Positions 16,049 through 47,989 are shown, counted from the first letter of the stretch. The stretch is 64,000 nucleotides of DNA from Candidatus Micrarchaeota archaeon (GCA_964643685.1 CAZXTN010000001.1:34967-98966), one strand, 5' to 3'. Notes: a model not told the origin generated them from the letters alone. Numbers and translations: made by a program.

Positions 16049-16069
16049 CCAGAGTTCTTTTTAAACGAT

Positions 16070-22620: not shown

Positions 22621-22916
22621 TGAAAAAAAACAAAACAAGCAAAAGAAAAGGACAAATTTACTTACTAATAGCAGGCATGATAATACTAGCAATAAGCACT
22701 CTCGCAAACATAGCAATACACACCTCAATGCCAGTCGAGCAGAAGCAGATAAAAACAACAAGCATAGGAGAAATGGCAATGAACTTGAAGATAGAAATGA
22801 GTATGATGAAAAGGAACAACATCAGCTCAAGCAACATAACAGACTTCCTGAACATTTTCAACAACTACTCAGCTGAAAAAAACTACGAATCACAAACAAG
22901 CGAAATAGATTCATGA
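22620..22916 (+). CDS. Small pilin-like protein (class III signal candidate)
   Basis: 'MKKNKTSKRKGQ/IYLLIAGMIILAISTLANIAI'. Start ATG overlaps the upstream stop (TAATG). Confidence 0.4.
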   Translation: MKKNKTSKRKGQIYLLIAGMIILAISTLANIAIHTSMPVEQKQIKTTSIGEMAMNLKIEMSMMKRNNISSSNITDFLNIFNNYSAEKNYESQTSEIDS

Positions 22917-29014: not shown

Positions 29015-29567
29015 GAAAAAAAGAAAAGAAAAGAGAATAAAAGAAATGGAAAAAGAAACTCCTTTCATAATGAAAAGCTTCGCCACTTTATTGAATGCAG
29101 GAATGAGCTTTGAAAAAGCAATGGAAGAAATATCAAAAAAAGAATACGTTTCATCAAAAGAATTTGAAAAAACACTGAATGAAATAAGACTCGGCGAAAG
29201 CGTTGAAAACGCGCTATACAAATTCAAAGAAAGGAACAAGTCAAAGCAAATTGCAAAAATGACAAACCTATTAACAAGCGCATACGCAAACGGAGAAAAC
29301 ATTGAAATGATAAAAAAATCAGCTGAAGAGCAAAGAGAAATCATAAAAAACAAAATGAAAGAATACAATGAAAAAGCAGTGCTTTACTCCTTGGCAATAA
29401 TAGGCGTATCAGCAATACTACCAGCATTCACTCAGGGATTCCTAATAATAGGCTCAGCATTCATGGACCTCGGAATAAGCGACATGCAAGCAATATTCCT
29501 AATCACAGTGGTTTTCCCACTGCTAAACGCGGTGATATTTTGGATATCAGCATCAAAAAAACCTTGA
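28989..29567 (+). CDS. Pilus platform protein, single T2SSF domain (TadB-like)
   Basis: 'SFATLLNAGMSFEKAMEEIS...LGESVENALYKF...MTNLLTSAYANGENIEMI' is a T2SSF domain, then 2 TM helices. The ORF caller starts at TTG 28980; ATG 28989 is preferred. Confidence 0.6.
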   Translation: MHSLENWLEKKRKEKRIKEMEKETPFIMKSFATLLNAGMSFEKAMEEISKKEYVSSKEFEKTLNEIRLGESVENALYKFKERNKSKQIAKMTNLLTSAYANGENIEMIKKSAEEQREIIKNKMKEYNEKAVLYSLAIIGVSAILPAFTQGFLIIGSAFMDLGISDMQAIFLITVVFPLLNAVIFWISASKKP

Positions 29568-30241
29568 AAAAAATAAAACAAGCAAAAAAAGAACATGAAA
29601 TAGAAAACAACCTGCCAGACGCCTTGTTTCAAATGAGCGCATCCTCCTACTACCTCCCTCCAGAACAAATGCTCCTTGACATCATAAAATCAGACTACGG
29701 GCAACTAAGCAAAGAATTTGAAAAAGCCTACACTGCAATAGAAAACGGCGAAAGCTGGAAAAACGCGCTTGAAAAATTAAAAAAAGACACAAAAAACAAG
29801 CACTTTGCAAAAGCAATAAACATGCTCACCCTAACATATGAAACAGGAAAAGAAGCAGGAACAGCATTAAGAGAAACAGCTGAAGAAATCGCAGAAGAAA
29901 TGAGAATACAAAGACAGAAAAACACTGCAATGACAATACAAAAAATAACACTAATCGCCGCAGGCGCTTTCATAATCCCCTTAATACTAGGAGTGCTAAT
30001 TTCAATGATAAACAACTTTGACTTCACAGGAATAACTGAATTTGGAATGACTCAAATGAACTTAAAAACAATAACAAAAGCAAACCAAGCATACTTAATA
30101 GAATACGGATTGCTCACAGCAGGCTTCATCTCATACCAAGAAAATAGAAAAGAAAAATTCCTAAAATACGCAGCATTAATCATAATCCCCTCACTAATAA
30201 TCTTCAACCTCGCAAAAATAGGCGCAATAAGTTTAATTTAA
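29540..30241 (+). CDS. Pilus platform protein, single T2SSF domain (TadC-like)
   Basis: 'PDALFQMSASSYY...YTAIENGESWKNALEKL...AINMLTLTYETGKEAGTALRETAEEI', then TM helices. TTG start. Overlaps the previous gene by 28 nt, so it is either a genuine split or a frameshift. Confidence 0.55.
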   Translation: MDISIKKTLKKIKQAKKEHEIENNLPDALFQMSASSYYLPPEQMLLDIIKSDYGQLSKEFEKAYTAIENGESWKNALEKLKKDTKNKHFAKAINMLTLTYETGKEAGTALRETAEEIAEEMRIQRQKNTAMTIQKITLIAAGAFIIPLILGVLISMINNFDFTGITEFGMTQMNLKTITKANQAYLIEYGLLTAGFISYQENRKEKFLKYAALIIIPSLIIFNLAKIGAISLI

Positions 30242-34416: not shown

Positions 34417-37400
34417 ATGAAAATAAAGAAAAAAGCAAAATTCAGCTATGAAAAAGCATCCTTGTTCTTAATCATAATACTAATAGGCACTTCATTAACT
34501 CCTTTTGCTTACTCCATAAAGCCAGCAGAACAACAAACAGACAAACTAAACTTGTTTGTAAAAATAGGAGCAGGAGGAGAAGCATGCAAAGACAAAGTCT
34601 GGATAGACAAACTTGACTGGAACGAATACCACAAACTAGTCAACGACACAATAACACAAGTAGACGCCTTCGGAAACAAAGAAGCCGGCGAAAGAGAACA
34701 AAACATGGAAAACGCTGGAATACCCTCAAACCCAGATGCAATTGGAATGGACAAGCAGTACATACCAGGAGTAGACGGCAAACCAGCTCTCTTATACGAC
34801 GTCATTGGAAAAAAAGCAGTGAACACAAACGACTACTGCTACTTAAACAACTTAGTGACAACAGGAAGAATATCCTACGCAACAAGACTAAAAGGATTCA
34901 TAAGATACTGCTCAAACAACTCAGCAGAATGCGAACAAAGAATAACAAAAGACGAACAAAGTGAAATAGAAGACGCTATAAAAAACGAACTCAAGCCATT
35001 AAAAGAACAAATAGACAAAGACAACCCAGACTGGGAAAAAATAAAAGAAAACATTAACAAATACAAAAACGAAAACACGCAATTCAAAGAAGCACTCTCA
35101 CAAACAAACTTAATAAAAGAACTTGACAAAACAGAACCAGACAAAGCAACAGTATCAAAAGAAATGGCAAACCTAGGCTCAGTGCTTGTAATAAAACAAG
35201 CAAGCACAGAAACACCAGAATCCTACGTAGAAAGCCCATCAATAGAACTAACAGTAAACGCAGACCAATTCCTACTAAGCCCAAAAACACTTCAAAACTG
35301 GCTCGCCTTCCTAAAATCATTTGCATCATTAGATACTGTAGTAACTGCAATGAATGTGCTTAACATGGCATCAATTGGAAGAGGAGGGAAAGGAGCAGCA
35401 GAGGTTATAGAAGGAGCTGAAACAGCTGCAAAAGCAGAGAAAGTAAGTTGGGTTACAAAATGGGGAAGAAGGTTATTTGGAACAACAGAGGGGGTTAATG
35501 CTGGAAGAGCAACAGAATTAATGAAAATAGGGGAAGCAGCAGAAATGGACGCACAAGTCCTAAAAAATGCGGAAAGGATAGCTAAAGCAACAGAAGAACT
35601 TAAAGGAGTAAATAAAGCAGATGAGATATTGAGTATATTAAAAAAAAGATCAAATACAATAAGAGAGGCAATAGAAGATACAAATAAGGGATTAAGTAAG
35701 AACATAGAAGAATTAGAGAAAATTAAAAATCCCTCAAACGAAGTAAAGAGTTTGATAAAACAACAAAAGGATATTTTGAAAGATGGAGAGAGCCTAGTAA
35801 AAAGGTTAGAAGTTTTAGAAGGAGGAAGTAATACAATCACAGATCCTTCGCTATTCGTAGGAGCCATTAACAAATTTGAAGAAGGGGTTAAAAATCTTAA
35901 AAATCCATCTCGTTCTTGGGAATGGTATGAAAAAATGAAAGCATTAGAAACTGCAGGAAGCTTAAAAGGAAAAGTAGGGGTAAAAGTTTTTGAATTTATA
36001 CAAGCAGTGTTCCAAAGTAAATTTTTAAATCCATTAAAATTAATGATTAGATTTCAAAAAGTAACATGGATAACATATGGTTTAATGTGGATAAACGATC
36101 AAGCATTAAGGCAACCAATTTATGAATCAAATGGAGCATTAATGATAATAAATGAAAAAACAACAAAAACAGCACATATGAGAGAAGCACAATCTTACTT
36201 AGATATTAAAAAAACAGTAGATTCAAGAGCGTACGCTCAACATTTAAGTGGATTAGTTGATACTTTCTGGAATTTGATAGGAGTCAAAACAGAATCAAAA
36301 CTAACTAGAAAATTAAAGACAATTCAAGACATTGTATTTATTTACGACCAAGATGCTTATGCTTCAAAAATAACAGGAAACAATCCAATAAACATTGTAT
36401 CAAGTCCTCTTGAAACAGGAAGCGAGTGGAAATTCTTCTCAACAGTAAATGACAAAGCAGTAGTATACAACTTCGAACACCCGAATGGATACAAAGGAGG
36501 AGGAAAATACTCAGCATTAGCATTTGAAATAAAAAACATAAATTTAGGGGCAGTAATAGCAGAGTCAAGTAATAAATTTAACACGCCATTAACAGGCCCG
36601 GTAAGAGCAATAGGAGTAATAAGAGATTTAATAGGGGCAACAATGCTATTTAGTTTTGCACCAGCATCAGCAACAGCAGCAGTGACAACAGCAGGAAAAG
36701 TTTTTTACGCATTGCCTGCAATGGCAGTAGCAGGAGTGTCAACTTATGGTGTAATTAAAGGAGCTTTCCCAATGTATACTCAAGAAATGTATGATATTAC
36801 ACAAGAAACAACAGCAAATGTAAACAGTTTAGAAGAGATATATGATAATCCAGATGCAACACTCTGTTCAGATGCAATTAATAAAGGAACATTTGGAGAC
36901 AAGAATGCAGTAACAGCTTTAAAATGGGCTATTGCAGCAACAGCTTTCATTTCACTTGTTGCATCAGATTCAGGAATAGGAAAACCAATAGGAATAGTTT
37001 CTGATTTAATAAATATGGGATTAAGTTGGAAAGAAGAGAAGATAGAGGAGGAGGTAAATGAAAAATTAAGCAATTGTGTTGAAACTGAATTTGATGCAGT
37101 GGCTTACAAGGACATGTTAAGTGACACTGAACTTCAGCAGAATTCAGCGCAGGCTTTACAGCCTCTTCAAGAAGAAATGTTTAACTTAATGGGAAGCATG
37201 AGCCCGCAGGCAACTGAAGCTCTTCAAAGCATTACAACCAACATTGTACAGAACACTTTAAGTGTCACAGGAGAATTATATGACAAGAATATTGTAACAA
37301 CAACAGGAAAAGAAATTTACAATATTCACTTCAAAGACGGGGCTATAAAATGGTTCCAAAGCGACAACTGCAAGATACAATTATGCCAGCAGGAAGAAGG

Positions 37401-38772
37401 CACTACAAGGTATAAATGTGATACTCAGCAAGGTTACATGTTATATGATGAAAATGGAGAATTAGTTCTGGATGGCGCTCCGCAGGCATTGAGTTTATAC
37501 ACTGATTTTGAAACAGGAAACATGAACATAGTTCAGAAAGTAATTGAAATAGCCAAGGATTCAGAAAACCCTTCAACGCAGTTTGAAATAACAAAAGATG
37601 GAATAAAAGTTAAAAGCACTTGCTTGAAGTCAAATATTAAAAAATTACTTGGCTTGACAGGAGACAACATGGAAAGAGTTTCAGAAAATGACATTGACTC
37701 TAAAATTGAAACAAGCCTCGGTAACTTAGAAGCAATATATACTGAAGATGCTAACTTGTGGTTTGATGAAAACGGCTTGCTTTCAATTCAATTTACAAAA
37801 GACACTGGCAGTTACGCTGCAGGGGAAATACAAAGAGTGAAAAAGGCAAAAATAGAGTTTGAAAACACTAACAATGGATTGATGAAAATAACAGGAGATG
37901 ACGGCTATTCATTAAGCCTTGAATTAGGTTCAAAAGGAGTCATTTCATTCAAAAACGGAATGCTGAGGTCAGGTTTGATTCAAACAAAAGAAGATGGAGA
38001 CAAAGTTGATTTTTCAAACCAGTTCCACTTGTTCATATACGGCTTAACTGAATTCACAGTGTCAGATATTAACAGCATAAACATAAGCGATTACTGCAAT
38101 GAAGACGGCACTTTAAACGGAGTCAAGCTTCAAGCTGACTTGGCATTAGGAGACCTTGACGCAAGCCAAGTTAACAACGTATTAAGTGACATTTGCTTCA
38201 GTGAATTTGAAACTGCAAATGGAGGACACGTGTCAATAAGAAACGGGCAATTATGCATACAAAAGCCAAATGGAGAAGAAGAATGCACTGACGTAACTGA
38301 AACAGATGAGGGCTTGAAAGCAGCAGACGGCAGCATTTGGAAAATAGAAAACGGCCCAAACGGACCTGAATGGTGGCAGTACATAAACGGCAAAAGAACA
38401 GGCAATCCTCTTCCAATACTAAACATGAACGGCTTAGGAGGAAGCTGGACAACAGGAGCAGACGGCAGAATAAGCATTAAAAACACTTTCCCATTCGCAT
38501 TAAACCCTTCATTCAACCAATACGGAGCAGGAGGACTTGGTTTAATGACTCCTCAACTGCCTCCATGGGGAGGAAGAGTAGAAGCAAAACAAGCAACGCA
38601 AGGAACAGGAGGACAAGGAACTCAAAACAATGTAATTGCACAGTTGCCTGGATTACCTGAAAACCCATACTGGTTTGCCTTGTTCATAATCACTTTAATC
38701 AGCAGCTTGATAATCATAAGAATAAAATACTCAGATGAAGAAGTAAAGCAAATAATTAAAAAACAAGAATAA
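34417..38772 (+). CDS. Giant (1451 aa) cell-surface protein with N-terminal signal and C-terminal TM anchor
   Basis: 'MKIKKKAKFSYEKASLFLIIILIGTSLTPFAYS' signal. C-terminal 'PYWFALFIITLISSLIIIRIKY' plus charged tail. No enzymatic motifs. Synonymous-codon style changes inside the gene. Confidence 0.6.
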   Translation: MKIKKKAKFSYEKASLFLIIILIGTSLTPFAYSIKPAEQQTDKLNLFVKIGAGGEACKDKVWIDKLDWNEYHKLVNDTITQVDAFGNKEAGEREQNMENAGIPSNPDAIGMDKQYIPGVDGKPALLYDVIGKKAVNTNDYCYLNNLVTTGRISYATRLKGFIRYCSNNSAECEQRITKDEQSEIEDAIKNELKPLKEQIDKDNPDWEKIKENINKYKNENTQFKEALSQTNLIKELDKTEPDKATVSKEMANLGSVLVIKQASTETPESYVESPSIELTVNADQFLLSPKTLQNWLAFLKSFASLDTVVTAMNVLNMASIGRGGKGAAEVIEGAETAAKAEKVSWVTKWGRRLFGTTEGVNAGRATELMKIGEAAEMDAQVLKNAERIAKATEELKGVNKADEILSILKKRSNTIREAIEDTNKGLSKNIEELEKIKNPSNEVKSLIKQQKDILKDGESLVKRLEVLEGGSNTITDPSLFVGAINKFEEGVKNLKNPSRSWEWYEKMKALETAGSLKGKVGVKVFEFIQAVFQSKFLNPLKLMIRFQKVTWITYGLMWINDQALRQPIYESNGALMIINEKTTKTAHMREAQSYLDIKKTVDSRAYAQHLSGLVDTFWNLIGVKTESKLTRKLKTIQDIVFIYDQDAYASKITGNNPINIVSSPLETGSEWKFFSTVNDKAVVYNFEHPNGYKGGGKYSALAFEIKNINLGAVIAESSNKFNTPLTGPVRAIGVIRDLIGATMLFSFAPASATAAVTTAGKVFYALPAMAVAGVSTYGVIKGAFPMYTQEMYDITQETTANVNSLEEIYDNPDATLCSDAINKGTFGDKNAVTALKWAIAATAFISLVASDSGIGKPIGIVSDLINMGLSWKEEKIEEEVNEKLSNCVETEFDAVAYKDMLSDTELQQNSAQALQPLQEEMFNLMGSMSPQATEALQSITTNIVQNTLSVTGELYDKNIVTTTGKEIYNIHFKDGAIKWFQSDNCKIQLCQQEEGTTRYKCDTQQGYMLYDENGELVLDGAPQALSLYTDFETGNMNIVQKVIEIAKDSENPSTQFEITKDGIKVKSTCLKSNIKKLLGLTGDNMERVSENDIDSKIETSLGNLEAIYTEDANLWFDENGLLSIQFTKDTGSYAAGEIQRVKKAKIEFENTNNGLMKITGDDGYSLSLELGSKGVISFKNGMLRSGLIQTKEDGDKVDFSNQFHLFIYGLTEFTVSDINSINISDYCNEDGTLNGVKLQADLALGDLDASQVNNVLSDICFSEFETANGGHVSIRNGQLCIQKPNGEEECTDVTETDEGLKAADGSIWKIENGPNGPEWWQYINGKRTGNPLPILNMNGLGGSWTTGADGRISIKNTFPFALNPSFNQYGAGGLGLMTPQLPPWGGRVEAKQATQGTGGQGTQNNVIAQLPGLPENPYWFALFIITLISSLIIIRIKYSDEEVKQIIKKQE

Positions 38773-38822
38773 GAAAAGAAATACTTCAGTTTTTTATACT
38801 CCTTGTTCTTTACTCTAATTTA

Positions 38823-39380
38823 ATGAAATTGCAGAAAAAAGGCCAGGAATCAGCGCCTATTGAATTGTTAATAGGAGTAACTATCCTAACATTCGTGTTA
38901 ATTATTGGGTTTTATGTCCTGCAACAAGCATCTTCACAGCAATACGAGCAAAAACTAAAAGCAAGTTTCAGCAACTTTGCAAGAGACATAGAAGCAGTTT
39001 ATTTAGGAAGTGTAGGCACAAGTTTCAGGACACAAGTTGACTTCACGCCCTCTGGAAGCGGAAACGACTTTGTAATTTCATCAATTCAATTAAAACAAGG
39101 ACTCTCTCCTACGTGCAGTGCCCAAACTGGAAGAAGCGACTGCATGGAATTATATGCTTACAAGAGAGACAAGTACGGCAATGAAAACTTGTTCCTAGCA
39201 GAAGTCATAAACATTCCAAGCAGCGTAAGCATAATAGGAAGCTTTTCAAACTGCCAAGGAGGAAATTTAAGTGAAATAGGAAGTAGAGAGAGTAACCCAG
39301 ATTGCTTCATTACCCCTACAAGCCACTCTTTTATTTTGACAAAAACAGGACCTAATGAAATCACTATAAGCGAAGGATGA
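38823..39380 (+). CDS. Pilin-like protein with class III (KGQ) signal peptide
   Basis: 'MKLQKKGQ/ESAPIELLIGVTILTFVLIIGFYVL'. Confidence 0.5.
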   Translation: MKLQKKGQESAPIELLIGVTILTFVLIIGFYVLQQASSQQYEQKLKASFSNFARDIEAVYLGSVGTSFRTQVDFTPSGSGNDFVISSIQLKQGLSPTCSAQTGRSDCMELYAYKRDKYGNENLFLAEVINIPSSVSIIGSFSNCQGGNLSEIGSRESNPDCFITPTSHSFILTKTGPNEITISEG

Positions 39381-39387
39381 ATTTAAA

Positions 39388-39942
39388 ATGAACAAAGGAT
39401 TAAGCGCTTGGCTGTTCAGCAAAATGGTAATGCTTTCATTTCTGTTAATTGTATTCAGCATCATGGGAGGGTTTCTTACAATATTAAACGAAAGAGCATT
39501 CAATGATTCAGCTTCAATACTCTGCCTTCAAGCAAGAGAATACTTGTCAGGGGTAGTGAATTCAAACGTAATAAGCGTTGAAAAAATAATGCCAATTCCA
39601 AAAGTGCTGCCAAGCGAAACAAATCAAAAAAGAAGAATGTATTACTTAGTAATAAGTTATTCCAGTTCAGACAATTCAGTTTCATTTGCAGTCACGCATG
39701 ACTTGTATCATGACCAGACATATGTCTCCTCTTCCTTGCTTTACCTGCCAAGCAATTCAGGAATACAATGGGGAAGTGGAGACTTGAGAATAAGCTCAGA
39801 TAAATACAGGTACTTAGTTATTCAAAAAAAACAAGGAGAAACCACAATTTACGCTTGCAAAGGAATAAACCCAACTACATTAAAAAACTGCATTTCAAGC
39901 CAAAGCCCTTCAGCTGAAAGTGATTCAATTGAAAGAGTTTAA
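39388..39942 (+). CDS. Pilin-like protein
   Basis: 'MNKG/LSAWLFSKMVMLSFLLIVFSIMGGFL'. Confidence 0.4.
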   Translation: MNKGLSAWLFSKMVMLSFLLIVFSIMGGFLTILNERAFNDSASILCLQAREYLSGVVNSNVISVEKIMPIPKVLPSETNQKRRMYYLVISYSSSDNSVSFAVTHDLYHDQTYVSSSLLYLPSNSGIQWGSGDLRISSDKYRYLVIQKKQGETTIYACKGINPTTLKNCISSQSPSAESDSIERV

Positions 39943-40351
39943 AAGCAAATCAAGGGGGTTCATAGGCCCGATTGGCGACGACTTGCCAAGCATAATAGCA
40001 ATATTGCTAGGCTTGTCTTTATTTTTCAGCGCATTAAGCTTTACGTTAAATGTTTACAATAACAAACTGACAGCATACAACATACTAAAAGGCACAATGG
40101 AAATAGCACATAAAGTCAACGAAAAAGGAGTAATAACTGAAAGCGCAAGCGACTTAATGCATTCAGCTGAAAAAATAGCTGAGTCATATGGGCTTGACTT
40201 CTGCATAAAAACAAAAGTAGGAAACACTAATGGAAAATCATGCACTACAGGAAACGACTGTCAAACAAGCTGGCTTCATTTCAAATACTTCACGGCATTT
40301 GAAACAAGCAACGGCATAAAACCAGGCACTTTGGAGGTATGCGCAGGATGA
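39920..40351 (+). CDS. Pilin-like protein (GTG start)
   Basis: '...KSKSRG/FIGPIGDDLPSIIAILLGLSLFFSALSF'. GTG start overlapping the upstream gene end. Confidence 0.35.
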   Translation: MIQLKEFKSKSRGFIGPIGDDLPSIIAILLGLSLFFSALSFTLNVYNNKLTAYNILKGTMEIAHKVNEKGVITESASDLMHSAEKIAESYGLDFCIKTKVGNTNGKSCTTGNDCQTSWLHFKYFTAFETSNGIKPGTLEVCAG

Positions 40352-40890
40352 ACAAAAGCAAAAGAAGAAAAGGGCAGTCTTCAATAATAGACGCTTTCTT
40401 ATTTATAATGATCTGCTCAAGCGCGGCAGTGCTAATGATTTACACAGCAGGGTTATATGGATTGAATAATTCAAAACAAGTTAGCATGGCATACAATTTT
40501 GAATTCATTAACAATGCTTTGATTTCAATGCATTACATGCAAGACAACCAGGGTGATTTTTTCTGGAGCAAGTTAAGTGAAAAGTTAATATGCGATGGAA
40601 ACACACCATGTGATGAAAAAATAGATGTTCAATCTTATTTGAATGGAGATGCTAAAGCAATTTGGGGTAACTTAACAACAGCTTCTCCTTCTTCAAAAAT
40701 ATCACTGGAATTTAAGTCAGAGGAGGACAGCAGAGACTTTTACTGCCACCCCTCATCTTCAGCAACTTTAACAGTAGCATGCACTGACTCTGACAATTAT
40801 GCAGATTACACTACTATTTTTTCAAGCTCAAGCGGATTAAAAGACAAAAACGCAGACAGTTGGAAAATAACCTTAAGAATATACTACTAA
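40339..40890 (+). CDS. Pilin-like protein with class III (KGQ) signal peptide
   Basis: 'MRRMNKSKRRKGQ/SSIIDAFLFIMICSSAAVLMIYTAGLYGL'. Confidence 0.45.
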   Translation: MRRMNKSKRRKGQSSIIDAFLFIMICSSAAVLMIYTAGLYGLNNSKQVSMAYNFEFINNALISMHYMQDNQGDFFWSKLSEKLICDGNTPCDEKIDVQSYLNGDAKAIWGNLTTASPSSKISLEFKSEEDSRDFYCHPSSSATLTVACTDSDNYADYTTIFSSSSGLKDKNADSWKITLRIYY

Positions 40891-40962
40891 AGAAAAAAAA
40901 GATAAACCTAAACAAAAACAAACGCCCTAAAAGAAAAAAAAAGACACAAGTTAATAACAAAA

Positions 40963-41106
40963 TCAGAGCAACAACATGCCTATTTGATTTACTGAGAATT
41001 CAGCTGCATTTTGAAACATCGGCTTAATAATAGCCAACAGCAAAATAGCTGCAATTGCTACAATCACAGCCAAGTAAATAGGCGTCCAATTCTGTCCCTT
41101 CATCAT
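40963..41106 (-). CDS. Miniature (47 aa) pilin-like protein with KGQ class III signal. Not in the supplied ORF track (<60 aa).
   Basis: Reverse strand translates to 'MMKGQ/NWTPIYLAVIVAIAAILLLAIIKPMFQNAAEFSVNQIGMLLL'. Same MM(K/R)GQ start as the adjacent 41188..41664 gene. Confidence 0.4.
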   Translation of the reverse strand: MMKGQNWTPIYLAVIVAIAAILLLAIIKPMFQNAAEFSVNQIGMLLL

Positions 41107-41187
41107 AAACAAATCACTTCAAGTAATAACAAAAGAAAAACAAGTATAAAAACCTTTAACAAAAACAAAAAAAAGAAAAAGAAGGAT

Positions 41188-41664
41188 TTAACTCATAGAG
41201 GCATCAGGACCGATACCTACTATACAATCTTTATTTTCATCACATGTAGCTTTAATAACTGTTTTAAAAGTGCTTGAGATAGCAACAGTATCTCCAGAAG
41301 CTGAACATCCTCCAAGTGCTGCATCACAACTAAATTTAACACTTCCTGTTCCTCCTAAAATATCTTTAAAAGAATTGCTTGAATACACAACACCTGGCTT
41401 GAAGCTTGCTTCAGTTTGGCTTACAAAAGTAGAACCAGGGTACTGAACTGCCTGCTGCAATTGCCCTTTAATCATAGTAGCTGGGTCTTGTCCAGGCAAG
41501 CTGATTCCCCCGAGAATAGCTAATAAAATTCCAAGAATAGCAACTGCTACTACAGCTGCAATCATTAATTTAAAAGTATCAAATGCTTGTCCTCTCATCA
41601 TACAAAAAACCACCTCTTTAAGATTAATTAAAAAAAAGAAACAAAAGTATAAAAAGCTTTTCAC
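41188..41664 (-). CDS. Type IV pilin-like protein with class III (RGQ) signal peptide
   Basis: 'MMRGQ/AFDTFKLMIAAVVAVAILGILLAILGGISL'. Confidence 0.55.
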   Translation of the reverse strand: MKSFLYFCFFFLINLKEVVFCMMRGQAFDTFKLMIAAVVAVAILGILLAILGGISLPGQDPATMIKGQLQQAVQYPGSTFVSQTEASFKPGVVYSSNSFKDILGGTGSVKFSCDAALGGCSASGDTVAISSTFKTVIKATCDENKDCIVGIGPDASMS

Positions 41665-41686
41665 GCAAAAAGTTAATCAAATAATT

Positions 41687-42097
41687 TTACGAAGAACAGG
41701 ATTCACCTAAGTAAACATTGCAAAGAGAATGAGAAGAACAAGTTACACTTACAGGAGTGCTTAATTTCCTAGGGAAACTGCAAGAACTACCACTGCAAAT
41801 ACGAGGATGAAAAGCATCATCATGAAAAGAAACACTTACTCCAATACTTGACTGGTAATAATTTTTTTCAATTAAAGCATGCTTGTCAAAGCAAATTGTT
41901 CTTTCAAAGCACTTGTCAGGGGCCCTTGACGCCTGCAGGACAAGAGTTTCAAGTTCTTTAAAACCAGGCGAAGGGCAGGTAATGTTAGAAGTTGCTTGGT
42001 AAATCAAGCCAAGCAAAGCCATTGCAAAAGCCAGGCCAATGAGCATTTTGAAGACAGTGAACGCTTGCCCCTTGTTATTAATTAATTTTAATTTCAT
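41687..42097 (-). CDS. Type IV pilin-like protein with class III (KGQ) signal peptide
   Basis: 'MKLKLINNKGQ/AFTVFKMLIGLAFAMALLGLIYQ'. Start overlaps the FlaJ stop (ATGA). Confidence 0.55.
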   Translation of the reverse strand: MKLKLINNKGQAFTVFKMLIGLAFAMALLGLIYQATSNITCPSPGFKELETLVLQASRAPDKCFERTICFDKHALIEKNYYQSSIGVSVSFHDDAFHPRICSGSSCSFPRKLSTPVSVTCSSHSLCNVYLGESCSS

Positions 42098-44175
42098 CCG
42101 AGAACACCTGACATTTTAGAAGCAAAGAAAGCTGAAATGAAAAAGAAAAGCAGGGCAATAGGCAGACTCTTGGCTATCACTGACTTCACTGTCAGGTCAT
42201 TGTCCCCTTCTTCTATTTTAGAAGTGAAGAATAAGAGAATTAAAGTCACTTGAATTACGTAAATTGCTATGATTATAAGGAAAGTCTGTGAAGAGGGGAT
42301 TTGTGCAAGGGCTTCTGGATTCGAGCATAAATTAACTGAACTCATGCCTCCTTCTGCCATTCCAGCACTTGAGCCAAGTTGTCCTGTTTTTCCACATGCT
42401 GATTTCATAGCGTCAATTATTATCTTCTGCAAGGCTGTTGTTATTCCAAGCACAAGAGGGCCTATGAAAAAAGCAATTGACTTCATCATTGAAGTGATTT
42501 CATCTAGTAATGACTTTATTTTTTCATTGATTTTCTGAGAATCTCTTAATTGCAGTGAAAGGGAAATAAGCGAACGCGCCGCGTGTTGAACTCCTAAGCT
42601 GATTGAATCCACTATTATTTTAAAACCTCCCCTGATAAGAGTCGAAGGCACATTTTTTAATGCGCCGTAAACAGGGTCAAACAAAGCTCCTTCTACAGTC
42701 ATTCCCATGTTGTTAATGTTTTCATCTGCCTTGTTGAAAACATCTGCTATTTCATTTCCTTTCATGAACTGGGCAGTGTAACCCATTGCTTCTTCCATTG
42801 GACGGTTTTCGCCTAAACGAGAAGCAAGGATGTAAATGGAATCCTGGAATCCTTTCTCCATTTTCATTATTTTCAATTGAATTTTTCTCTTAGCACTGAC
42901 TTGCCCAAGCAAGTAAATAGACAAGAAAGCGCTGAAGCCGAAGAAAACTCCAGCTATTCTGAAGAAATGAAAGTAAGCAGTGACAGCTTCCTTGTTCCAA
43001 GCTTCAGGAGGGGGGTTAAGCAAAGGATCTACTACAAAAGCAGACAAGGCGAAGACAATCAAGCCAACTGCAAGCGCAACTGCTATTGTAGGTACTGAAA
43101 TTTTGCCTATTTTCATAAATCCTTTTTTAGGAAGACCAGGATAATTATCTGGAATTTTAGGAGGGGTGTAGACAGGAGGGCGTTTTGCAAGGATGGTGCG
43201 AGCGAACATTACAGTCATTAAGGGAATTGCAATGTTGTACATGAGAATCAAATAAATTGTTTTTCCAAGAGGAAGGCCAGCCATGGCAGAGCCGATTGGA
43301 AGCATTATGATGAGAAGAAGAGGAAGGAGAACTCCTACATAGTAAAGGTAGACACTTGGTTGCCTCATTTCAGCAGCGTATTTTCCCATGTTTTCTTTCA
43401 AGCTTTCAAGAGTGTCGCTTACTGCTTTTTCTAATAAAATTTCTCTTTTTGCTTCGTCGACTTCAATAACTGAAGAGCGAATAACCATTAACGCGTGCTT
43501 GAATTCATCAGAGTACTTTCCCCACTTGTAAGCAAGTTCATCAAGCCCTTCTTCAATTGTGTTGAATTCCCCTACTTTTGTCTTCCATGATATTTTTTTC
43601 AAGTCATCTGCTATTTTTCCCTTACCGTGTTCAGCTGCGAAGTCAACTGCTTTCTCCAAGTTCGGCGAAAGTTTCATTGACATAACCATGTAATTGATTA
43701 TTTCAGGAATGTATGTGACTGACTTCATTTTCAAGTCCTTGGCAGCTGAAACAGGGTAGTTCTGCAAGTAAAAGGAAATGAAAAAAGGAAGAAGCAAAGC
43801 AGGCATGCCCACATACACTAAGTAAATGGTTGCGCCTGGAGGAATTACTCCGAAAACTTGGAAGAAAAGGTCAATTATTACAAATAAGAACAAGGGAATT
43901 GAAATCAAAGCACCTATGAACAAGCCAAGCATTGGAGCTGCATTAACTTCCCTTGGCTTTAAGTCCCAGCCGAGAAAATCAAGAGCAAGCTTGTAATCTT
44001 CCTTTTGAAACACGTTAGGTGCTTTGAACATTTTGCCTGCTTTTCGGCATAACTTGACATACCAGTTGCTGGATTTTCCCCTGCTTGGAGAATCTGCTCC
44101 GAAGTCGCTTTGTATTTTTTTAAGAAAATCATCTTCTTCTTGCTGCGGCGATTTTCTTTTGCTTGATTGCTTCAA
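42094..44175 (-). CDS. FlaJ/TadC-like polytopic pilus platform protein (fused two-domain form, 693 aa)
   Basis: T2SSF-like cytoplasmic domain 'MKSVTYIPEIINYMVMSMKLSPNLEKAVDFAAEHGKGKIADDLKK...LESLKENMGKYAAEM', flanked by multiple TM helices. Adjacent to an ATPase. Confidence 0.75.
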   Translation of the reverse strand: MKQSSKRKSPQQEEDDFLKKIQSDFGADSPSRGKSSNWYVKLCRKAGKMFKAPNVFQKEDYKLALDFLGWDLKPREVNAAPMLGLFIGALISIPLFLFVIIDLFFQVFGVIPPGATIYLVYVGMPALLLPFFISFYLQNYPVSAAKDLKMKSVTYIPEIINYMVMSMKLSPNLEKAVDFAAEHGKGKIADDLKKISWKTKVGEFNTIEEGLDELAYKWGKYSDEFKHALMVIRSSVIEVDEAKREILLEKAVSDTLESLKENMGKYAAEMRQPSVYLYYVGVLLPLLLIIMLPIGSAMAGLPLGKTIYLILMYNIAIPLMTVMFARTILAKRPPVYTPPKIPDNYPGLPKKGFMKIGKISVPTIAVALAVGLIVFALSAFVVDPLLNPPPEAWNKEAVTAYFHFFRIAGVFFGFSAFLSIYLLGQVSAKRKIQLKIMKMEKGFQDSIYILASRLGENRPMEEAMGYTAQFMKGNEIADVFNKADENINNMGMTVEGALFDPVYGALKNVPSTLIRGGFKIIVDSISLGVQHAARSLISLSLQLRDSQKINEKIKSLLDEITSMMKSIAFFIGPLVLGITTALQKIIIDAMKSACGKTGQLGSSAGMAEGGMSSVNLCSNPEALAQIPSSQTFLIIIAIYVIQVTLILLFFTSKIEEGDNDLTVKSVIAKSLPIALLFFFISAFFASKMSGVLG

Positions 44176-46417
44176 TTTGCCTCCTCCTCTGCACTAGTCT
44201 TTCAACCTGCTCTTTTAAAACCCATTCTTTCCAGTCTTTTTTCGCCTGCTCCCAGTCAACAAAACCCTGCGCTTGCCTCTGGTCTTCTAAAATAAGCAGC
44301 CACTTGTCATTAGCAGGCACTGTGAATTCAGCTTCAAGCAGCTGCGGAATGTTGTATTTTCTTTTCATTTCAACTAAGAAGTTCTTGGTTTCAGCGCGTG
44401 CATGAATGTCATCCCATAAGTCACTGACTTTCAAACCACGTTTTTTTGCTATGCGTGGGAACAATTCAGAACGCTTCAACTCCTCTTGGTTTATGTAATG
44501 AGTGTCTTTTTCAGCGTCAAATTGAAGAATGTTAATAAGCCCTCCTTCTTTTTCAGGGTCCTCGTACCAGTGTTTTCCAATTTCAGTTATTTCAACTAGC
44601 CTCCTGTTTCTTTTAAGAGAACCTTTGAATCTCACTGGAGCTGAAGTGACTACTACGTCAGTTGCTTTGAATGAGGTGTTAGGCACTCCCAAGTCATTTA
44701 CTATCCTGTCCCATACTGAGTAAGCGTTTTCACCGTGAATTGTTCCCATTACAACGTTTCCAACAGCACCTACTCTCATTGCTTCATACAAAACTTGGGC
44801 TTCTTTTGAACGCACTTCTCCTACTATCAATACAGAGTCACCGAGACGCAAAGCAGTTCTTAATGCTTCTTCAGGTGGCACTTCTGCGCTTGTTCTTGAA
44901 ACACTTATTGCTGACTGCGTTTTCAGCCTTTGAATGTTGTAACCTAGTTTTTTCATGTAAGGCACTGGAATTTCAAGAGTGTCTTCTTGTACAATTATTC
45001 TCGCTGATGGCAGTATTTCCAGCATTAAAGCCATGAGCATTGAAGTCTTACCAGCTCCCCTAGAGCCGTTGACTAGAGTTGATGCCTGCGCGTCTATTAG
45101 GAAAGACAGCAAGCCAGCTGCAAGTGGATTAACCATTTTAACGTCAATGAATTGAGGCAGAGTCCAAGGCGTCTGCTTGTGTAATCTTAAAGCAAGTGCT
45201 ATGCCGTCAGGGGATAAAGGAGGACCTATTACAGCTACTCTTGTTTGAAGAGCGTTTAAGTCCAAGTCCATTACTGGATGCGCTTCGTCAAAAGGCCTTC
45301 CTGAAAGCGAACGGAATCTTGAGATTATTCCCTTTGCTTCTTGTTCAGTGAAAAGCACGTTTGTCTGGCAGCTGCCATATTCTCCATGCACGACGTAAAC
45401 TGGTTTTGTGCCGAGAGGAGCGTCCATGTAAACGTCTGTGAGCTTCCTGTCTCTTAAAAGCAGTTCCATCATGCCGTAGCCGACAGTGTAACGGGTTACT
45501 ATTTTAGCTAATTGCTGTGTTTCTTTTCCTGTTATTATTATTTTGTTTTTCTGAGCTAAGTCAGAGATTGTTCTTTCGTAAATTTTAGCAAAGTAGTTTC
45601 TGATGTCTTCTGGTGTCATGAACCTGATTCCTTTCGGGCGGTAGGATGAAACAAGTTCTCTTGTCTTGGTTAGCAGGAAGTATTTTTCAGGGGACAAGTT
45701 GAATTCAGGTGGGTTGATGTAGTAGAGGAATTGTATTTTTTCAGGGTGCTTGTAAATGTTGACAGTCGCGTCTTCAACTATGTATTGGTCAACTAGTTCC
45801 ACGTTTGCAGGAGTGTGGAAAAAGACATTTGAAGATACAAACGCCGGTTTTATTTGAACTTGAAACAAGGAGTGGTAAATTGCTCTTCCTTTCGGCACTT
45901 TTCCAAGTTTTTTAAGAATAAGCTTTACTTTTTTAATCAAGGTTGTTCTTTCAAAAGCGTTGTACATGAAAGCAAGGGTTCTTAAGAAGCCGTCGTCTCC
46001 TCCTGAAGCTATTCTCTGCTTTTCTTTCTTGATTAATTCAACTAACTGCAAGTAAGCTTGAATAGGGTCTGTTCTAAGAAGCTCCTGTGCTATCATTAAA
46101 ACTTGCTGATTTCTTTCTTTAAGCACTTCTTCGCTCGCTTTTCCAAGACGGGATGGAGTCCACACTCCTTCTCTTAAGAACAAGTCATATAATTCAGCTA
46201 TTTCTTTAATCATTTTTGTCTGTTTTTCATCGTAAATGTTTTCATAAACATCTGACAAGACAATTATGTCAGGATCAGTTTTGCCTGCTTTTTCAATGAC
46301 TTCGCTCATCACTGAAGGAAAATCAGCTATGCTTGCAGAAGCTCCTTCGCCTCTGTAATCTATTATTAAATACCTCTTTCCCCCTTCTACTTTTATGGTG
46401 TAATCATGCCCAGACAT
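44129..46417 (-). CDS. FlaI/TadA/VirB11-like pilus secretion ATPase with Arg/Lys/Glu-rich C-terminal extension (762 aa)
   Basis: Walker A 'LVNGSRGAGKTSMLMAL', Asp box 'RIIVQEDTLEIP', 'VLIVGEVRSKEAQVLYEAMRVGAVGNVVMGTIHG'. Confidence 0.8.
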   Translation of the reverse strand: MSGHDYTIKVEGGKRYLIIDYRGEGASASIADFPSVMSEVIEKAGKTDPDIIVLSDVYENIYDEKQTKMIKEIAELYDLFLREGVWTPSRLGKASEEVLKERNQQVLMIAQELLRTDPIQAYLQLVELIKKEKQRIASGGDDGFLRTLAFMYNAFERTTLIKKVKLILKKLGKVPKGRAIYHSLFQVQIKPAFVSSNVFFHTPANVELVDQYIVEDATVNIYKHPEKIQFLYYINPPEFNLSPEKYFLLTKTRELVSSYRPKGIRFMTPEDIRNYFAKIYERTISDLAQKNKIIITGKETQQLAKIVTRYTVGYGMMELLLRDRKLTDVYMDAPLGTKPVYVVHGEYGSCQTNVLFTEQEAKGIISRFRSLSGRPFDEAHPVMDLDLNALQTRVAVIGPPLSPDGIALALRLHKQTPWTLPQFIDVKMVNPLAAGLLSFLIDAQASTLVNGSRGAGKTSMLMALMLEILPSARIIVQEDTLEIPVPYMKKLGYNIQRLKTQSAISVSRTSAEVPPEEALRTALRLGDSVLIVGEVRSKEAQVLYEAMRVGAVGNVVMGTIHGENAYSVWDRIVNDLGVPNTSFKATDVVVTSAPVRFKGSLKRNRRLVEITEIGKHWYEDPEKEGGLINILQFDAEKDTHYINQEELKRSELFPRIAKKRGLKVSDLWDDIHARAETKNFLVEMKRKYNIPQLLEAEFTVPANDKWLLILEDQRQAQGFVDWEQAKKDWKEWVLKEQVERLVQRRRQIEAIKQKKIAAARRR

Positions 46418-46978
46418 AAAACCACTGCATTCAAAAAACAGTTGAAAACTGCCTTGATATTCATACTAAGCATAAGTGCTTTTTATACCTTATTCTGGTT
46501 AATTTTAAAAAATTTGAATCTGTACCCATTGAAAAAAGCGACTGCAATAGCAGCTTATAAAATGCTTGAATTAATTGGAGTTAAAGCAGGTTTGGTTTTA
46601 ACAGCAGAGCCTTCAATAACAGTTGGGAAAGTGACTGCGCAGATAACTAACTTATGCGCAGGAGACTTAGAAATAGCTTTGATTACAGCTATTATTTTGT
46701 CAACTTTTGACAGGACATGGAAAAACAGGGCTTGGGGAGTCTTGTTTGCATGGCTTTTAATTTTAATTATCAACCCATTGAGGATATTTGCTGTGCTTGC
46801 TGTCGGTTACTATACTTCCTGGCAGTGGGCTGACTTCACTCATGACGTGCTGTTCAGGCTGACTTTGCTTGTCGTGATAGTTTTTTATTACTTCATTTGG
46901 TATGTAAAAAATGAAAAAATAAAGAAAAAGGTATTGAAATGGGCAGAGAAAAAGGGTTTTCATTATTCACTCCATTAA
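46406..46978 (+). CDS. Small polytopic membrane protein, possible exosortase/archaeosortase-family core
   Basis: 'NLCAGDLEIALITAIIL' resembles the exosortase 'CSG' region. 'NPLRIFAVLA' resembles the conserved N..R motif. Lacks the two-Asp pattern of prepilin peptidases. Confidence 0.35.
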   Translation: MPRHKTTAFKKQLKTALIFILSISAFYTLFWLILKNLNLYPLKKATAIAAYKMLELIGVKAGLVLTAEPSITVGKVTAQITNLCAGDLEIALITAIILSTFDRTWKNRAWGVLFAWLLILIINPLRIFAVLAVGYYTSWQWADFTHDVLFRLTLLVVIVFYYFIWYVKNEKIKKKVLKWAEKKGFHYSLH

Positions 46979-47907
46979 TCGGAACTACAATAATAGTAAT
47001 AGCAGCTGTAGTAAGCGCCATGATGCTTCAAAATGACGTGAGGATAAGCAGGGCTTTGTCAGATAGCTTCGAGCAAGCAAACCAGCAGAATGCAGCCAAG
47101 CTAGTTAAAGCAACTGCTGAAGTGACAATAAGAAAAGGAGTTGAACAGGGATTCAAAAAAACACTGGAAAAAGGCATAACAATTAATTATGAAAGTAGCA
47201 GCATTGAAGATTCTTTCAAGCAAGCAATTGAAAAAGGGATAAAGGATTACTTATCAACTGACTTATACAGCAATATGCTTGATGAAATTTCAACAAGCAC
47301 TGGATACGACGCTCAACACATTGATTGCACTGATTACGGCGGAGAAGCTGACAGCACGCCTGAAAATTGCCTTGCAAAAGGAATAAGCCACACTTCAATC
47401 ACTCTTGTAGACGACTCCTCTAATGGAAACAGGTACATGGCAGAGTTTGACATAGACAGGGACTATGAAGGAGCTTATGCTGTCCGTTTCAAAAACTCTG
47501 AAAACCAGTTTGTTATTCTTTCTTTAGAGCCTGATACAAGCGAAAGCTACCCAATTGCAATTGACGCTAAAACAATGATAGGAAACGTCAAGCAAATCAA
47601 GCAAAAGCTCGCTGTGAAAGGAGATGAAAGTTATAGGAATTTGCTTACAGGATTAAGGGACGGCGGTTTTTTCAGTGGAGTAAAGGAAGTTGACATTTAC
47701 AAAAAAGAAGGCTCAGATAAGAGGTTAATACAAATTATTTTCAAAGGAACAGAATGGGGGTTAGAGAAGGACTTTGTAATTAACTTAAAACCAAATGGAG
47801 ACAGAACTGATTACCATGTTCCTGAATGCAAATGGGATGAATCAAATGGAGTGCCAAGCTTATCAAGCTTAGATCCAAATGCTATTTTATGGAATGAATG
47901 TGATTAG
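46939..47907 (+). CDS. Pilin-like/secreted protein (322 aa)
   Basis: 'MGREKG/FSLFTPLIGTTIIVIAAVVSAMMLQ' is a class III-like N-terminus. Confidence 0.4.
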   Translation: MGREKGFSLFTPLIGTTIIVIAAVVSAMMLQNDVRISRALSDSFEQANQQNAAKLVKATAEVTIRKGVEQGFKKTLEKGITINYESSSIEDSFKQAIEKGIKDYLSTDLYSNMLDEISTSTGYDAQHIDCTDYGGEADSTPENCLAKGISHTSITLVDDSSNGNRYMAEFDIDRDYEGAYAVRFKNSENQFVILSLEPDTSESYPIAIDAKTMIGNVKQIKQKLAVKGDESYRNLLTGLRDGGFFSGVKEVDIYKKEGSDKRLIQIIFKGTEWGLEKDFVINLKPNGDRTDYHVPECKWDESNGVPSLSSLDPNAILWNECD

Positions 47908-47989
47908 TTTTAAATAAAAATACTGATTGATTAATTAAATTAAAAGCATTGAAGAAGTTTTTAAAAAAAGCAAAGGAGGAGTTTTGAAA

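Follow-up and report, generated by a model that had tools for sequence, protein, structure and literature searches.

A conserved set of seven pilin-like genes beside a type IV filament motor module in a Micrarchaeota-like archaeon

In the micrarchaeon 'Ca. Mancarchaeum acidiphilum' Mia14 (Golyshina et al. 2017), a nine-gene locus, MIA14_0252-0260, is listed as a FlaI-type ATPase and a TadC platform protein followed by seven annotated class III signal-peptide proteins (PMC5498576, Supplementary Table 2), and one FlaK-like A24 peptidase is reported to be encoded away from the pilus loci (PMC5498576). In Methanococcus maripaludis the Epd pilins are cut at KGQ or RAQ sites (the KGQ sites listed being KGQV, KGQL, and KGQI), and the peptidase EppA requires Gln at position +1 (PMC4371748). 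Euryarchaeal type IV pilus loci of clade 2 and clade 4 combine an ATPase/TadC module with FlaFind-type pilins of their own, including predicted major and minor pilins, and are often linked to S-layer-like or large surface proteins (Makarova, Koonin and Albers 2016, PMC4858521). This census mentions neither Micrarchaeota nor Iainarchaeota, nor DPANN archaea beyond nanoarchaea, nor a conserved pairing with an archaeosortase-like gene. Here we analyse a 64-kb stretch of DNA (the window) from an ultra-small DPANN archaeon of the Micrarchaeota/Iainarchaeota lineage (Micrarchaeota-like), and find that seven of its genes, p1-p7, form a real, conserved pilin set, an ordinary and poorly annotated case of a known kind of system.

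The seven genes and their N-termini

The set occupies positions 38823-42097. As the initial annotation had proposed, seven ORFs are present there, each with a class III-like N-terminus directly after its start codon: the basic leader is short and closes with [KR]G, after which come Q, L, or F and at least 20 residues of hydrophobic sequence. The leaders are 3-13 residues long, all lie close to the N-terminus, and end with [KR]G at positions -2/-1, within the [KRDE][GA] of FlaFind-type rules; the best 17-residue Kyte-Doolittle mean, directly after the start codon and [KR]G, is 2.2-3.2 for the seven proteins. The G-Q/L/F description applies to all seven, with Gln at +1 in five only (p1, p4, p5, p6, and p7); p2 has Leu there, and p3 has Phe. 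The range of 47 to 185 aa previously given for the mature parts corresponds to the precursors, the predicted mature proteins being 43-180 aa in length.

Four of the genes are found on the plus strand. The pilin-like p1 (38823-39380; 185 aa), first gene of the p1-p4 unit, has the leader MKLQKKG followed by QESAPIELLIGV, and in its alignment G7, Q8, P12, and E14 are invariant or nearly so. The class III-like protein p2 (39388-39942; 184 aa) starts with MNKG and then LSAWLFSKMVML, and its orthologues conserve [KR]G followed by [LI]xxW[LIT][FM]SK. In p3 (39920-40351; 143 aa from a GTG start), likewise class III-like, a leader ending in KSRG precedes FIGPIGDDLPSII. Orthologues of p3 from 11 loci conserve [KR][GA] followed by [FY][ILV]GP[ILV]GDD[LFI]P, the most distinctive motif of the set, and a word-based search of the database returned only 6 homologues. 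The last gene of the unit, the pilin-like p4 (40339-40890; 183 aa, reduced to 180 aa if the second ATG is the start), has a leader ending in KRRKG and then QSSIIDAFLF / QSSIIDAFLFIMI; its orthologues, found by BLAST in 8 loci, share [KR][GA] and, next to it, Q[AS]x[IV][IM]D.

The remaining three genes are on the minus strand. The gene p7 (41687-42097; 136 aa), with the leader MKLKLINNKG followed by QAFTVFKMLIG, is a candidate minor pilin; its orthologues were detected by BLAST in 4 loci, and 8 more loci contain an unmatched ORF at the p7 position with RG and then Q(E/S/Y/Q). The best-conserved full-size member is p6 (41188-41601; 136-137 aa), a candidate major pilin in which the leader M(M)RG (MMRG) precedes QAFDTFKLMIAAV / QAFDTFKLMIAAVVAVAILGILL. 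Among the positions invariant in 65 p6 sequences are Q5, F7, T9, and F10, and the family includes 628 cluster representatives in metagenomes. The smallest gene, p5 (40963-41106), encodes a 47-aa precursor with the leader MMKG followed by QNWTPIYLAV / QNWTPIYLAVIVAIAAILLLAIIKPMFQ and a predicted mature form of 43 aa, making it a candidate helix-only mini-pilin without a globular domain. This 47-aa ORF was called by independent gene callers in two Logan assemblies, and p5 orthologues were recovered from 10 loci by BLAST and from 2 more by position. These conserve W-T-P-I-Y and IKPMF, while the +1 residue varies (Q, V, D, A) and the leader is apparently absent in one.

The mature parts had been described as unrelated to one another. 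This holds for every pair except p6 and p7, no relation being found past the N-terminus; p6 and p7 are paralogues, for which hhalign gives 99.3% over their full length and 86% when the comparison is limited to the globular part. An extracellular domain would also suit the conserved cysteines, of which p6 has four and p1 at least three.

Taken by itself, the motif is not uncommon. A loose motif rule gives 27 six-frame matches in the 64-kb window, antisense junk included. When applied to 59 plausible genes, the same rule gives 15 matches with no housekeeping gene among them: p1-p7, five genes beside ATPase/platform modules (four at module 1 and one at 46939), a small ORF at 54647 with multiple membrane spans, and two likely Sec signals, at 22972 and 34417. 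The strongest case against a chance origin of the motif in p1-p7 is conservation: in related loci each of the seven genes has an orthologue at the matching place in the gene order, and [KR][GA] is retained.

Up to 12 related Micrarchaeota/Iainarchaeota genomes carry one-to-one orthologues of p1-p7 with the gene order unchanged, and there they follow the ATPase and platform genes as p7, p6, p5, p1, p2, p3, p4. The [KR][GA] site is conserved in all seven families and the leaders vary freely. Because the orthologues are kept in the same order and the site is conserved in each family, the set has not diversified recently; its seven distinct orthologous families make up an old and fixed group and no rapidly diversifying array, contrary to its earlier description as diversified. 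The convergent layout also noted at that time is present in the window, and the inverted p1-p4 arrangement is reproduced in two independent assemblies, but it is specific to this genome, all seven genes being codirectional with the ATPase in all relatives. The layout reflects a local inversion of the self-contained p1-p4 transcription unit and has no special function.

Structure models, motor genes and neighbours

AlphaFold2 (AF2) models were analysed for p6 (pLDDT 88.3), with helices at 5-32 and 40-53 followed by beta strands, and for p1 (pLDDT 88.9), in which a helix of 49 residues (13-61) precedes a beta sheet. Both predicted models have the shape of a pilin, an N-terminal helix of approximately 50 residues leading into a beta-rich head. 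Foldseek comparison of the two models with solved structures found no resembling pilin (best E of 0.3 for p6 and 0.1 for p1), and profile searches of PDB sequences gave no match. In searches of Pfam and NCBIfam at E<=1, p1-p7 gave no match other than a weak, sub-threshold one of p4 to the UpsA model (E of 0.053; 13.7 bits, cut-off 130), and none of the seven matched the curated models for the N-termini of pilins or class III proteins (Pfam Class_IIIsignal/DUF361 and Pilin_N; TIGR02537) at E<=1. Such short N-terminal models miss divergent pilins. The result with the curated models lowers the confidence of annotation and is still compatible with a pilin class for p1-p7.

A potential concern is whether some or all of p1-p7 are uncleaved signal-anchor bitopic proteins or Sec substrates, with accessory or stator-like roles like those of FlaF and FlaG in the archaellum. 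The failure to match pilin N-terminal models would fit such a role, as would the selection of two probable Sec signals by the same loose rule. Also in line with such proteins, no Peptidase_A24 match or GxGD motif indicative of a prepilin peptidase was found in any gene of the 64-kb window, and the flanks of 20 related loci contained no multi-span GxGD protein besides homologues of the platform or giant protein. In Mia14 the class III protein MIA14_0259, taken as the p3 counterpart by gene order alone, is annotated as a 'component' and not as a pilin. The position of the conserved site argues against plain anchors: [KR][GA] stands directly before the hydrophobic segment, invariantly across seven families whose leaders vary freely, as would be expected of a protease recognition site. 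In ordinary Sec (class I) signals a short hydrophobic core of about 7-15 residues precedes a small-x-small cleavage site. The hydrophobic segments of p1-p7 have at least 20 residues and, by direct reading of the sequence, no evident small-x-small (A-x-A-type) site after them. The single continuous helix of approximately 50 residues, which packs on the sheet in the AF2 models, also speaks against an anchor or Sec signal, and we regard this explanation as highly unlikely for the set. The pilin reading is the one we favor, although p2 and p3 could instead remain uncleaved and anchored in the membrane, as accessory proteins and not filament subunits.

The pilin reading agrees with the neighbouring genes. 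The module-3 assembly ATPase (44129-46417, minus strand; 762 aa) belongs to the FlaI/TadA/VirB11 superfamily and has an N-terminal extension of about 280 aa. It matches Pfam T2SSE (6.3e-19), the NCBIfam models FlaI (1.1e-42) and TadA (2.5e-37), both under their equivalog cut-offs, and the bindosome BasE model (3.2e-24), and it was found in 20 related loci at 50-75% identity. We considered an archaellum and rejected it: no archaellin, FlaF, FlaG, or FlaH matches were found anywhere in the window, and the ATPase reaches 146 bits against the FlaI equivalog cut-off of 550. The module-3 platform protein (42094-44175, minus strand; 693 aa) is a polytopic protein of the TadC/FlaJ/T2SSF type whose match to Pfam T2SSF (8.4e-05, 23 bits) falls just below the 25.2-bit cut-off; its orthologues follow the ATPase in 15 loci. 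Module 3 contains this single platform gene, whereas module 1 of the window contains two. The position of p1-p7 beside this ATPase and platform module, the conserved [KR][GA] site, the AF2 models, and the K-G-Q sequence, which matches processing sites listed for the Epd pilins (PMC4371748), all agree with the original proposal of a pilin- or pseudopilin-like substrate set.

Two further genes are conserved neighbours. Divergent from the ATPase is a gene for an exosortase/archaeosortase-family protein (46406-46978, plus strand; 190 aa), which matches Pfam EpsH (8.1e-10) and TIGR04178 (45.8 bits, cut-off 23); in 17 of the 20 related loci an archaeosortase-like gene adjoins the gene for the ATPase. 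The giant surface protein (34417-38772, plus strand; 1451 aa) has what looks like a Sec-type N-terminus (...LTPFAYS, then IKP) and a C-terminal LPGLPEN followed by a membrane span and a basic tail. This C-terminal arrangement, LPxxPE/G with a transmembrane segment and an R/K tail, is conserved in 4 relatives, and homologues flank p4 in 6 loci. The giant protein may be a sortase substrate or an adhesin.

These neighbours also bear on whether the filament, instead of being a long adhesive pilus, is a short pseudopilus, a secretion or display piston of the bacterial T2SS or archaeal bindosome type with one major and several minor pseudopilins and the giant proteins as cargo. In type II secretion systems (T2SS), GspG is the major pseudopilin and GspH-K are the minor ones, and the locus resembles GspG plus GspH-K in having one well-conserved subunit together with a fixed, ordered group of dissimilar minor subunits. 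The conserved presence of giant secreted proteins and of the archaeosortase-like gene would suit a piston, as would the match of the ATPase to BasE. However, neither sequence nor structure comparison matched p1-p7 to pseudopilins or bindosome components, no substrate-binding-protein domains are present, and the 1451-aa giant protein has its own Sec-type signal and would therefore not need a piston. Sequence alone cannot separate a long filament from a short one; on the evidence above we consider a pseudopilus quite unlikely and retain a pilus-like filament as the preferred reading.

Promoter-like elements and a proposed filament

A promoter-like element upstream of p1 (38788-38811, plus strand) consists of TTTTTATAC and a pyrimidine-rich tract, its TATA-like part (38791-38811) lying about 25 nt upstream of the ATG. 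Near-identical copies are found on the minus strand upstream of p5 (41132-41155, or 41132-41152) and upstream of p6 (41635-41655); the element was recognized as inverted repeat I2 (83% over 24 nt). Within the 64 kb the 21-nt TATA-like pattern, with at most 1 mismatch, occurs only upstream of these three genes, and relatives retain a TATA-like box of the TTTAAATAC type ahead of p6 and p1. These elements are putative promoters. A GAGGTG ribosome-binding site, in addition to its own TATA-like element, precedes p6. The genes p1-p4 constitute a conserved four-gene unit with its own putative promoter, and p7 is probably co-transcribed with the motor genes, because its start overlaps the stop of the platform gene.

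We conclude that p1-p7 are likely prepilins, the filament subunits belonging to a single archaeal type IV filament machine (module 3). The hydrophobic helix at the N-terminus of each precursor would mediate its insertion into the membrane. Because the window contains no prepilin peptidase, we infer cleavage of p1-p7 from the motif: an A24 aspartyl protease (PibD/FlaK or EppA type), whose gene would lie elsewhere in the genome, would cut after the G/A at -1, removing the basic leader of 3-13 residues and exposing Gln (p1, p4, p5, p6, and p7), Leu (p2), or Phe (p3). By homology, the ATPase and platform protein would then extract the subunits and stack their alpha-1 helices into a helical fibre. 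Less certain than this core mechanism is the division of labor among the subunits. The bulk of the fibre may be p6, perhaps joined by p5 with its 43 residues of helix only, because both have their own TATA-like promoters, p6 has a strong ribosome-binding site, and these two are the best conserved. The p7 protein, joined to the motor operon, and the p1-p4 unit may supply low-abundance minor pilins that would initiate assembly or build a complex serving as tip or adaptor, like the sets of bacterial type IV pili and type II secretion. This less certain assignment of major and minor subunits is based only on promoter-like motifs, gene position, and conservation. A likely role would be attachment to surfaces or host cells, possibly with the giant surface proteins and the archaeosortase-like enzyme.

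A more specific reading, which we think unlikely, is a host-attachment organelle particular to DPANN archaea, in which a lollipop-shaped p6 pilin and the 43-residue, helix-only p5 make up an unusual fibre of two parts and the independently transcribed p1-p4 form a four-protein tip docking archaeosortase-processed giant proteins encoded on both sides of the locus. If so, Micrarchaeota/Iainarchaeota would have their main adhesive fibre in the p6-type family (>600 cluster representatives and no Pfam model), and p1-p4 would be the archaeal equivalent of the minor-pilin quartet of bacteria, with sequences and folds of their own.

Comparison with known systems

Bacterial minor-pilin sets include GspH-I-J-K of type II secretion and FimU-PilV-PilW-PilX of type IVa pili; Tad pili have the Flp major pilin together with TadE/TadF. 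No similarity in sequence or fold was detected between these proteins and p1-p7, and the likeness would be a functional one by analogy, in that a major subunit would be accompanied by a conserved series of low-abundance pilin-like proteins, fixed in order and dissimilar to one another. The p5 protein resembles Flp in being a helix-only subunit of about 43 residues. We rejected it as a Flp/Tad major pilin: it has no Flp_Fap Pfam match, and QNWTPIY lacks the Glu at +5 of the Flp G/XXXXEY motif.

The Epd pili of M. maripaludis (EpdA-E, EppA) likewise require several dissimilar pilins per pilus and have K-G-Q/R-A-Q cleavage sites with Gln at +1 and a very small major pilin (PMC4371748, PMC3875500), and [KR]G followed by Q is found in five of the seven proteins here. 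The acidic residues are placed differently, at +5 in Epd as against +2/+7 in p1, +4 in p6, and +6 in p4, with none in p5 and p7. The locus was rejected as an Epd/EppA type: no DUF361/Class_IIIsignal match and no EppA-like peptidase were found in it, and the platform is encoded by one gene (693 aa) in module 3 but by two in Epd-type 'System 1' loci (bioRxiv 10.64898/2026.04.22.720090).

In the euryarchaeal clade-2 and clade-4 loci, as here, an ATPase/TadC module is accompanied by its own FlaFind-type pilins (PMC4858521). The Mia14 locus has the annotated make-up found here, of ATPase, platform protein, and seven class III proteins; this likeness is one of annotated make-up, the last four genes are inverted in the window, and the Mia14 annotation is a table entry without experimental or structural follow-up. 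Mia14 belongs to the same phylum-level lineage as the host of p1-p7, and its prepilin peptidase is encoded elsewhere in the genome.

Seven small genes with class III-like N-termini

A six-frame scan that required a [KR]G motif just after the start codon, and then a strongly hydrophobic 17-residue window, recovered all seven of the small pilin-like genes p1 to p7 at 38823–42097, four of them on the plus strand and three on the minus strand. On the plus strand, p1 (38823–39380) begins MKLQKKG-QESAPIELLIGV, p2 (39388–39942) MNKG-LSAWLFSKMVML, p3 (39920–40351) ..KSRG-FIGPIGDDLPSII and p4 (40339–40890) ..RRKG-QSSIIDAFLF, the hyphen here and below following the [KR]G motif. On the minus strand, p5 (40963–41106) begins MMKG-QNWTPIYLAV, p6 (41188–41601) MMRG-QAFDTFKLMIAAV and p7 (41687–42097) ..NNKG-QAFTVFKMLIG. 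The rule by itself is loose, with 27 matches in the window, many of them antisense junk. Among the 59 plausible window genes it marks 15 and no housekeeping gene; these 15 are p1–p7, five genes beside ATPase/platform modules (four at module 1 and one at 46939), a small multi-span ORF at 54647, and two genes with probable Sec signals.

We extracted ORFs from 20 related loci, found through homologues of the module-3 ATPase, and compared them with the window proteins; orthologues were found for all seven p genes. In the orthologue alignments the leaders vary freely, and [KR][GA] is fixed directly before a conserved N-terminus specific to each family: QAF(D/T/S)xFK for p7 and p6, QE(E/S)APxEL for p1, (L/I)xxW(L/I)(F/M)SK for p2, (F/Y)(I/L)GPxGDDxP for p3, Q(A/S)x(I/V)(I/M)D for p4, and xxW(T/S)xIYL...IKPMF for p5. 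A protease recognition site leading into an assembly helix would be expected to show this pattern. With both the scan and the orthologues covering every member, the set of seven genes with class III-like N-termini reported in the initial annotation is confirmed.

The window contains archaeal housekeeping genes, and homologues of the module-3 ATPase at 50–75% identity come only from MAGs labelled Micrarchaeota, Iainarchaeum or Nanobdellati; its source is a DPANN archaeon. It carries three type IV filament modules: module 1 (ATPase 17101–19095) and module 2 (ATPase 27302–29014, plus strand, with an N-terminal 4Fe-4S domain) each have two platform genes, and module 3 (ATPase 44129–46417) has a single 693-aa platform gene (42094–44175), whose stop codon is overlapped by p7. 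In the module-2 ATPase, a 4Fe-4S dicluster ferredoxin domain (residues ~33–78; Fer4 5e-20) is fused to the T2SSE core; type IV filament ATPases do not usually carry such a redox-cluster domain. Two small platform genes (28980–30241) follow it, with no obvious pilin genes. Module 1 is flanked by four class III-like ORFs on the plus strand at 15998–16657 (MEKG-ISPIV), 21203–21685 (MKG-TVDYDF), 21709–22620 (MNKG-FVKIFEV) and 22599–22916 (KRKG-QIYLL), which look like a second, unrelated pilin set; the first alone matched TIGR02537, and weakly (E 0.038).

Gene order, paralogy and the inverted p1–p4 unit

In up to 12 related loci the ATPase and platform genes are followed by a constant order of p7-like, p6, p5, p1, p2, p3 and p4, all seven co-directional with the ATPase. 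The conserved [KR][GA] and helix, together with this position behind the ATPase and platform genes, support the proposal that the set represents pilin or pseudopilin-like substrates of module 3. The set had also been described as diversified, as would be seen in a recently diversifying paralogue array. Profile-profile comparison identified p6 and p7 as paralogues (99.3% at full length, 86% when only the globular parts were compared), and no relatedness beyond weak N-terminal similarity was detected for the other pairs. One-to-one orthologues for every gene, and a relationship between p6 and p7 only, led us to reject the array; the constant order in relatives and the single paralogous pair indicate instead an old, fixed group of seven. 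Extra copies do occur inside the set in two loci: one contains a second p6 and a second p1 (L009, 15542–16084 and 16106–16678), and another a tandem p6 duplicate (L015, 14894–15989). Based on these extra copies, p6, the major-pilin candidate, tends to duplicate.

The convergent layout in the window results from p1–p4 (38823–40890) alone being flipped. This block is inverted relative to every related locus that has p1–p4, and in the window it is co-directional with the gene for a 1451-aa protein. The inverted layout was reproduced in two independent Logan assemblies from different sequencing runs (SRR7051160 and SRR35108318), and their agreement excludes an assembly error. An invertible, phase-variable p1–p4 segment was also considered. 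Two inverted repeats, I1 and I2, reflect the resemblance between p1 and p5 in their promoters and N-terminal coding sequence; they do not border the flipped block, and the ancestral order would not be restored by recombination between these repeats. Since no flanking inverted repeats accounting for the inversion were found, this possibility was dropped.

A TATA-like element, TTTTTATAC, lies ~25 nt upstream of the p1 ATG, and a TATA-like box upstream of p1 and p6 is also kept in relatives. The p1–p4 unit therefore appears self-contained, which would explain why its flip is tolerated. A near-identical 21-nt TATA-like element, TTTTTATACTYNTKTTTYTTT (≤1 mismatch), is present at only three places in the 64 kb, exactly upstream of p1 (38788–38811, plus strand), p5 (41132–41155, minus strand) and p6 (41635–41655, minus strand); p6 also has a GAGGTG ribosome-binding site. 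We consider the 21-nt elements putative promoters, and their sharing suggests three co-regulated pilin transcription units.

Homologues, structure models and neighbouring genes

None of the seven proteins had a usable match in Pfam or NCBIfam, p4 showing only a sub-threshold UpsA hit. In PDB sequence searches, for which p6 and p1 were used as profiles and p4 and p5 were also queried, all matches were at chance level. For p6 and p1, those homologues that the source names at all go by 'hypothetical protein', and no precomputed Pfam domain is attached to any homologue. The p6 profile, used in a full HMM search, recovered 628 cluster representatives at E≤1e-3, 352 of them at E≤1e-10. The eight distant p6-family members that were read share the N-terminus GQAFxxFKLLIAA, and a Pfam scan of ten distant members detected no domain. 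The p3 search returned only 6 proteins. Confident AlphaFold2 models of p6 and p1 were obtained from alignments of 65 and 40 database homologues, respectively. The p6 model (pLDDT 88.3) has helices at 5–32 and 40–53 and then strands, and the p1 model (pLDDT 88.9) a single 49-residue helix (13–61) and then a sheet. When the two models were compared with the PDB by Foldseek, no pilin was recovered; the top matches (E 0.1–0.3) had Ig/FN3-like or unrelated folds.

In related loci, three genes are divergent from the module-3 ATPase: one archaeosortase-like, one encoding a 322-aa class III-like protein and one a homologue of a 2050-aa protein. There, p4 faces a convergent gene for a homologue of the 1451-aa protein. 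The exosortase/archaeosortase-family gene (46406–46978, plus strand; TIGR04178, 45.8 bits against a cut-off of 23) is likewise divergent from the ATPase in the window, and because it holds this position in 17 of the 20 related loci, a functional link between the module-3 pilus system and C-terminal protein sorting is suggested. The 1451-aa protein (34417–38772, plus strand) gave no Pfam match; its N-terminus is of Sec type, and its C-terminus carries 'LPGLPEN', a membrane span and a basic tail. This LPxxPE/G, TM and R/K-tail arrangement is kept in four relatives and looks like a sortase-type sorting signal, so that the protein may be a substrate of the adjoining archaeosortase-like enzyme. The 322-aa protein (46939–47907, plus strand) begins MGREKG-FSLFTPLIGTTIIV; its class III-like motif, [KR]G then F(S/T)(L/V)F(T/A/S)P(L/M)(V/I)G, is kept in 9 related loci, in most of which it lies near the 2050-aa protein homologue, and it may be an eighth substrate of the module-3 machine. 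The 2050-aa protein (47984–54136, plus strand) contains CarboxypepD_reg and Ig-like domains. Its N-terminal segment of ~40 residues (EDKWFDLLD...KG(V/I)PVY...) is conserved in relatives and precedes KG-IP(S/T)LP and a membrane span, an unusual arrangement for a surface protein.

Proposed assembly and relation to known systems

For the seven-gene system we infer cleavage, filament composition and function as follows. By homology with type IV filament systems, the p1–p7 precursors would insert into the membrane, their leaders would be removed by an A24 class III signal peptidase encoded elsewhere, and the ATPase and platform protein would polymerise the subunits into a filament. No Peptidase_A24 match was found by Pfam among the 59 window genes and no GxGD motif in any of them, nor did a GxGD and multi-span scan of the window and the 20 related loci reveal a prepilin peptidase. 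PibD-type enzymes are lax at the +1 position. Judging solely from putative promoters, conservation and location in the locus, p6, either by itself or together with p5, would be the bulk subunit, and p7 and p1–p4 would act as minor pilins in priming or capping the filament.

Most of the tiny DPANN archaea live attached to a host, and pili are the leading candidates for how they find and hold it; to our knowledge no DPANN pilin has been characterised. The Micrarchaeota/Iainarchaeota system now has a defined parts list. It comprises seven orthologous subunit families in fixed order, among them a candidate major pilin family found widely in metagenomes under no label but 'hypothetical', as well as a candidate minor-pilin unit under its own predicted promoter; the archaeosortase-like enzyme and the giant surface proteins are conserved partners. 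From the alignments supplied, family models could be built that would end the 'hypothetical' annotation. The analysis does not reveal a new kind of system. What it adds is the conserved order of the seven genes, the paralogy of p6 and p7, p5 as a helix-only member, a self-contained p1–p4 unit that has been inverted, the extent of the p6 family, which lacks annotation, and the conserved archaeosortase-like and giant-protein neighbours.

An archaellum was rejected, as there are no archaellin, FlaF, FlaG or FlaH genes in the window. The seven-gene set has no detectable relation to bacterial minor pilins or Flp. General frameworks are available (Makarova et al. 2016, PMC4858521; Sivabalasarma and Albers 2026, bioRxiv 10.64898/2026.04.22.720090), neither of which mentions Micrarchaeota, Iainarchaeota or an archaeosortase link. 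The Epd pilins of Methanococcus have K-G-Q sites with Gln at +1 and are processed by EppA (PMC4371748); module 3, with its single platform gene and no DUF361 match, is not a clear member of the Epd/System-1 group. The closest published case is that of the micrarchaeon 'Ca. Mancarchaeum acidiphilum' Mia14, for which a single FlaK-like peptidase is reported (PMC5498576) and whose locus MIA14_0252–0260 is annotated as encoding an ATPase, TadC and seven class III signal-peptide proteins.
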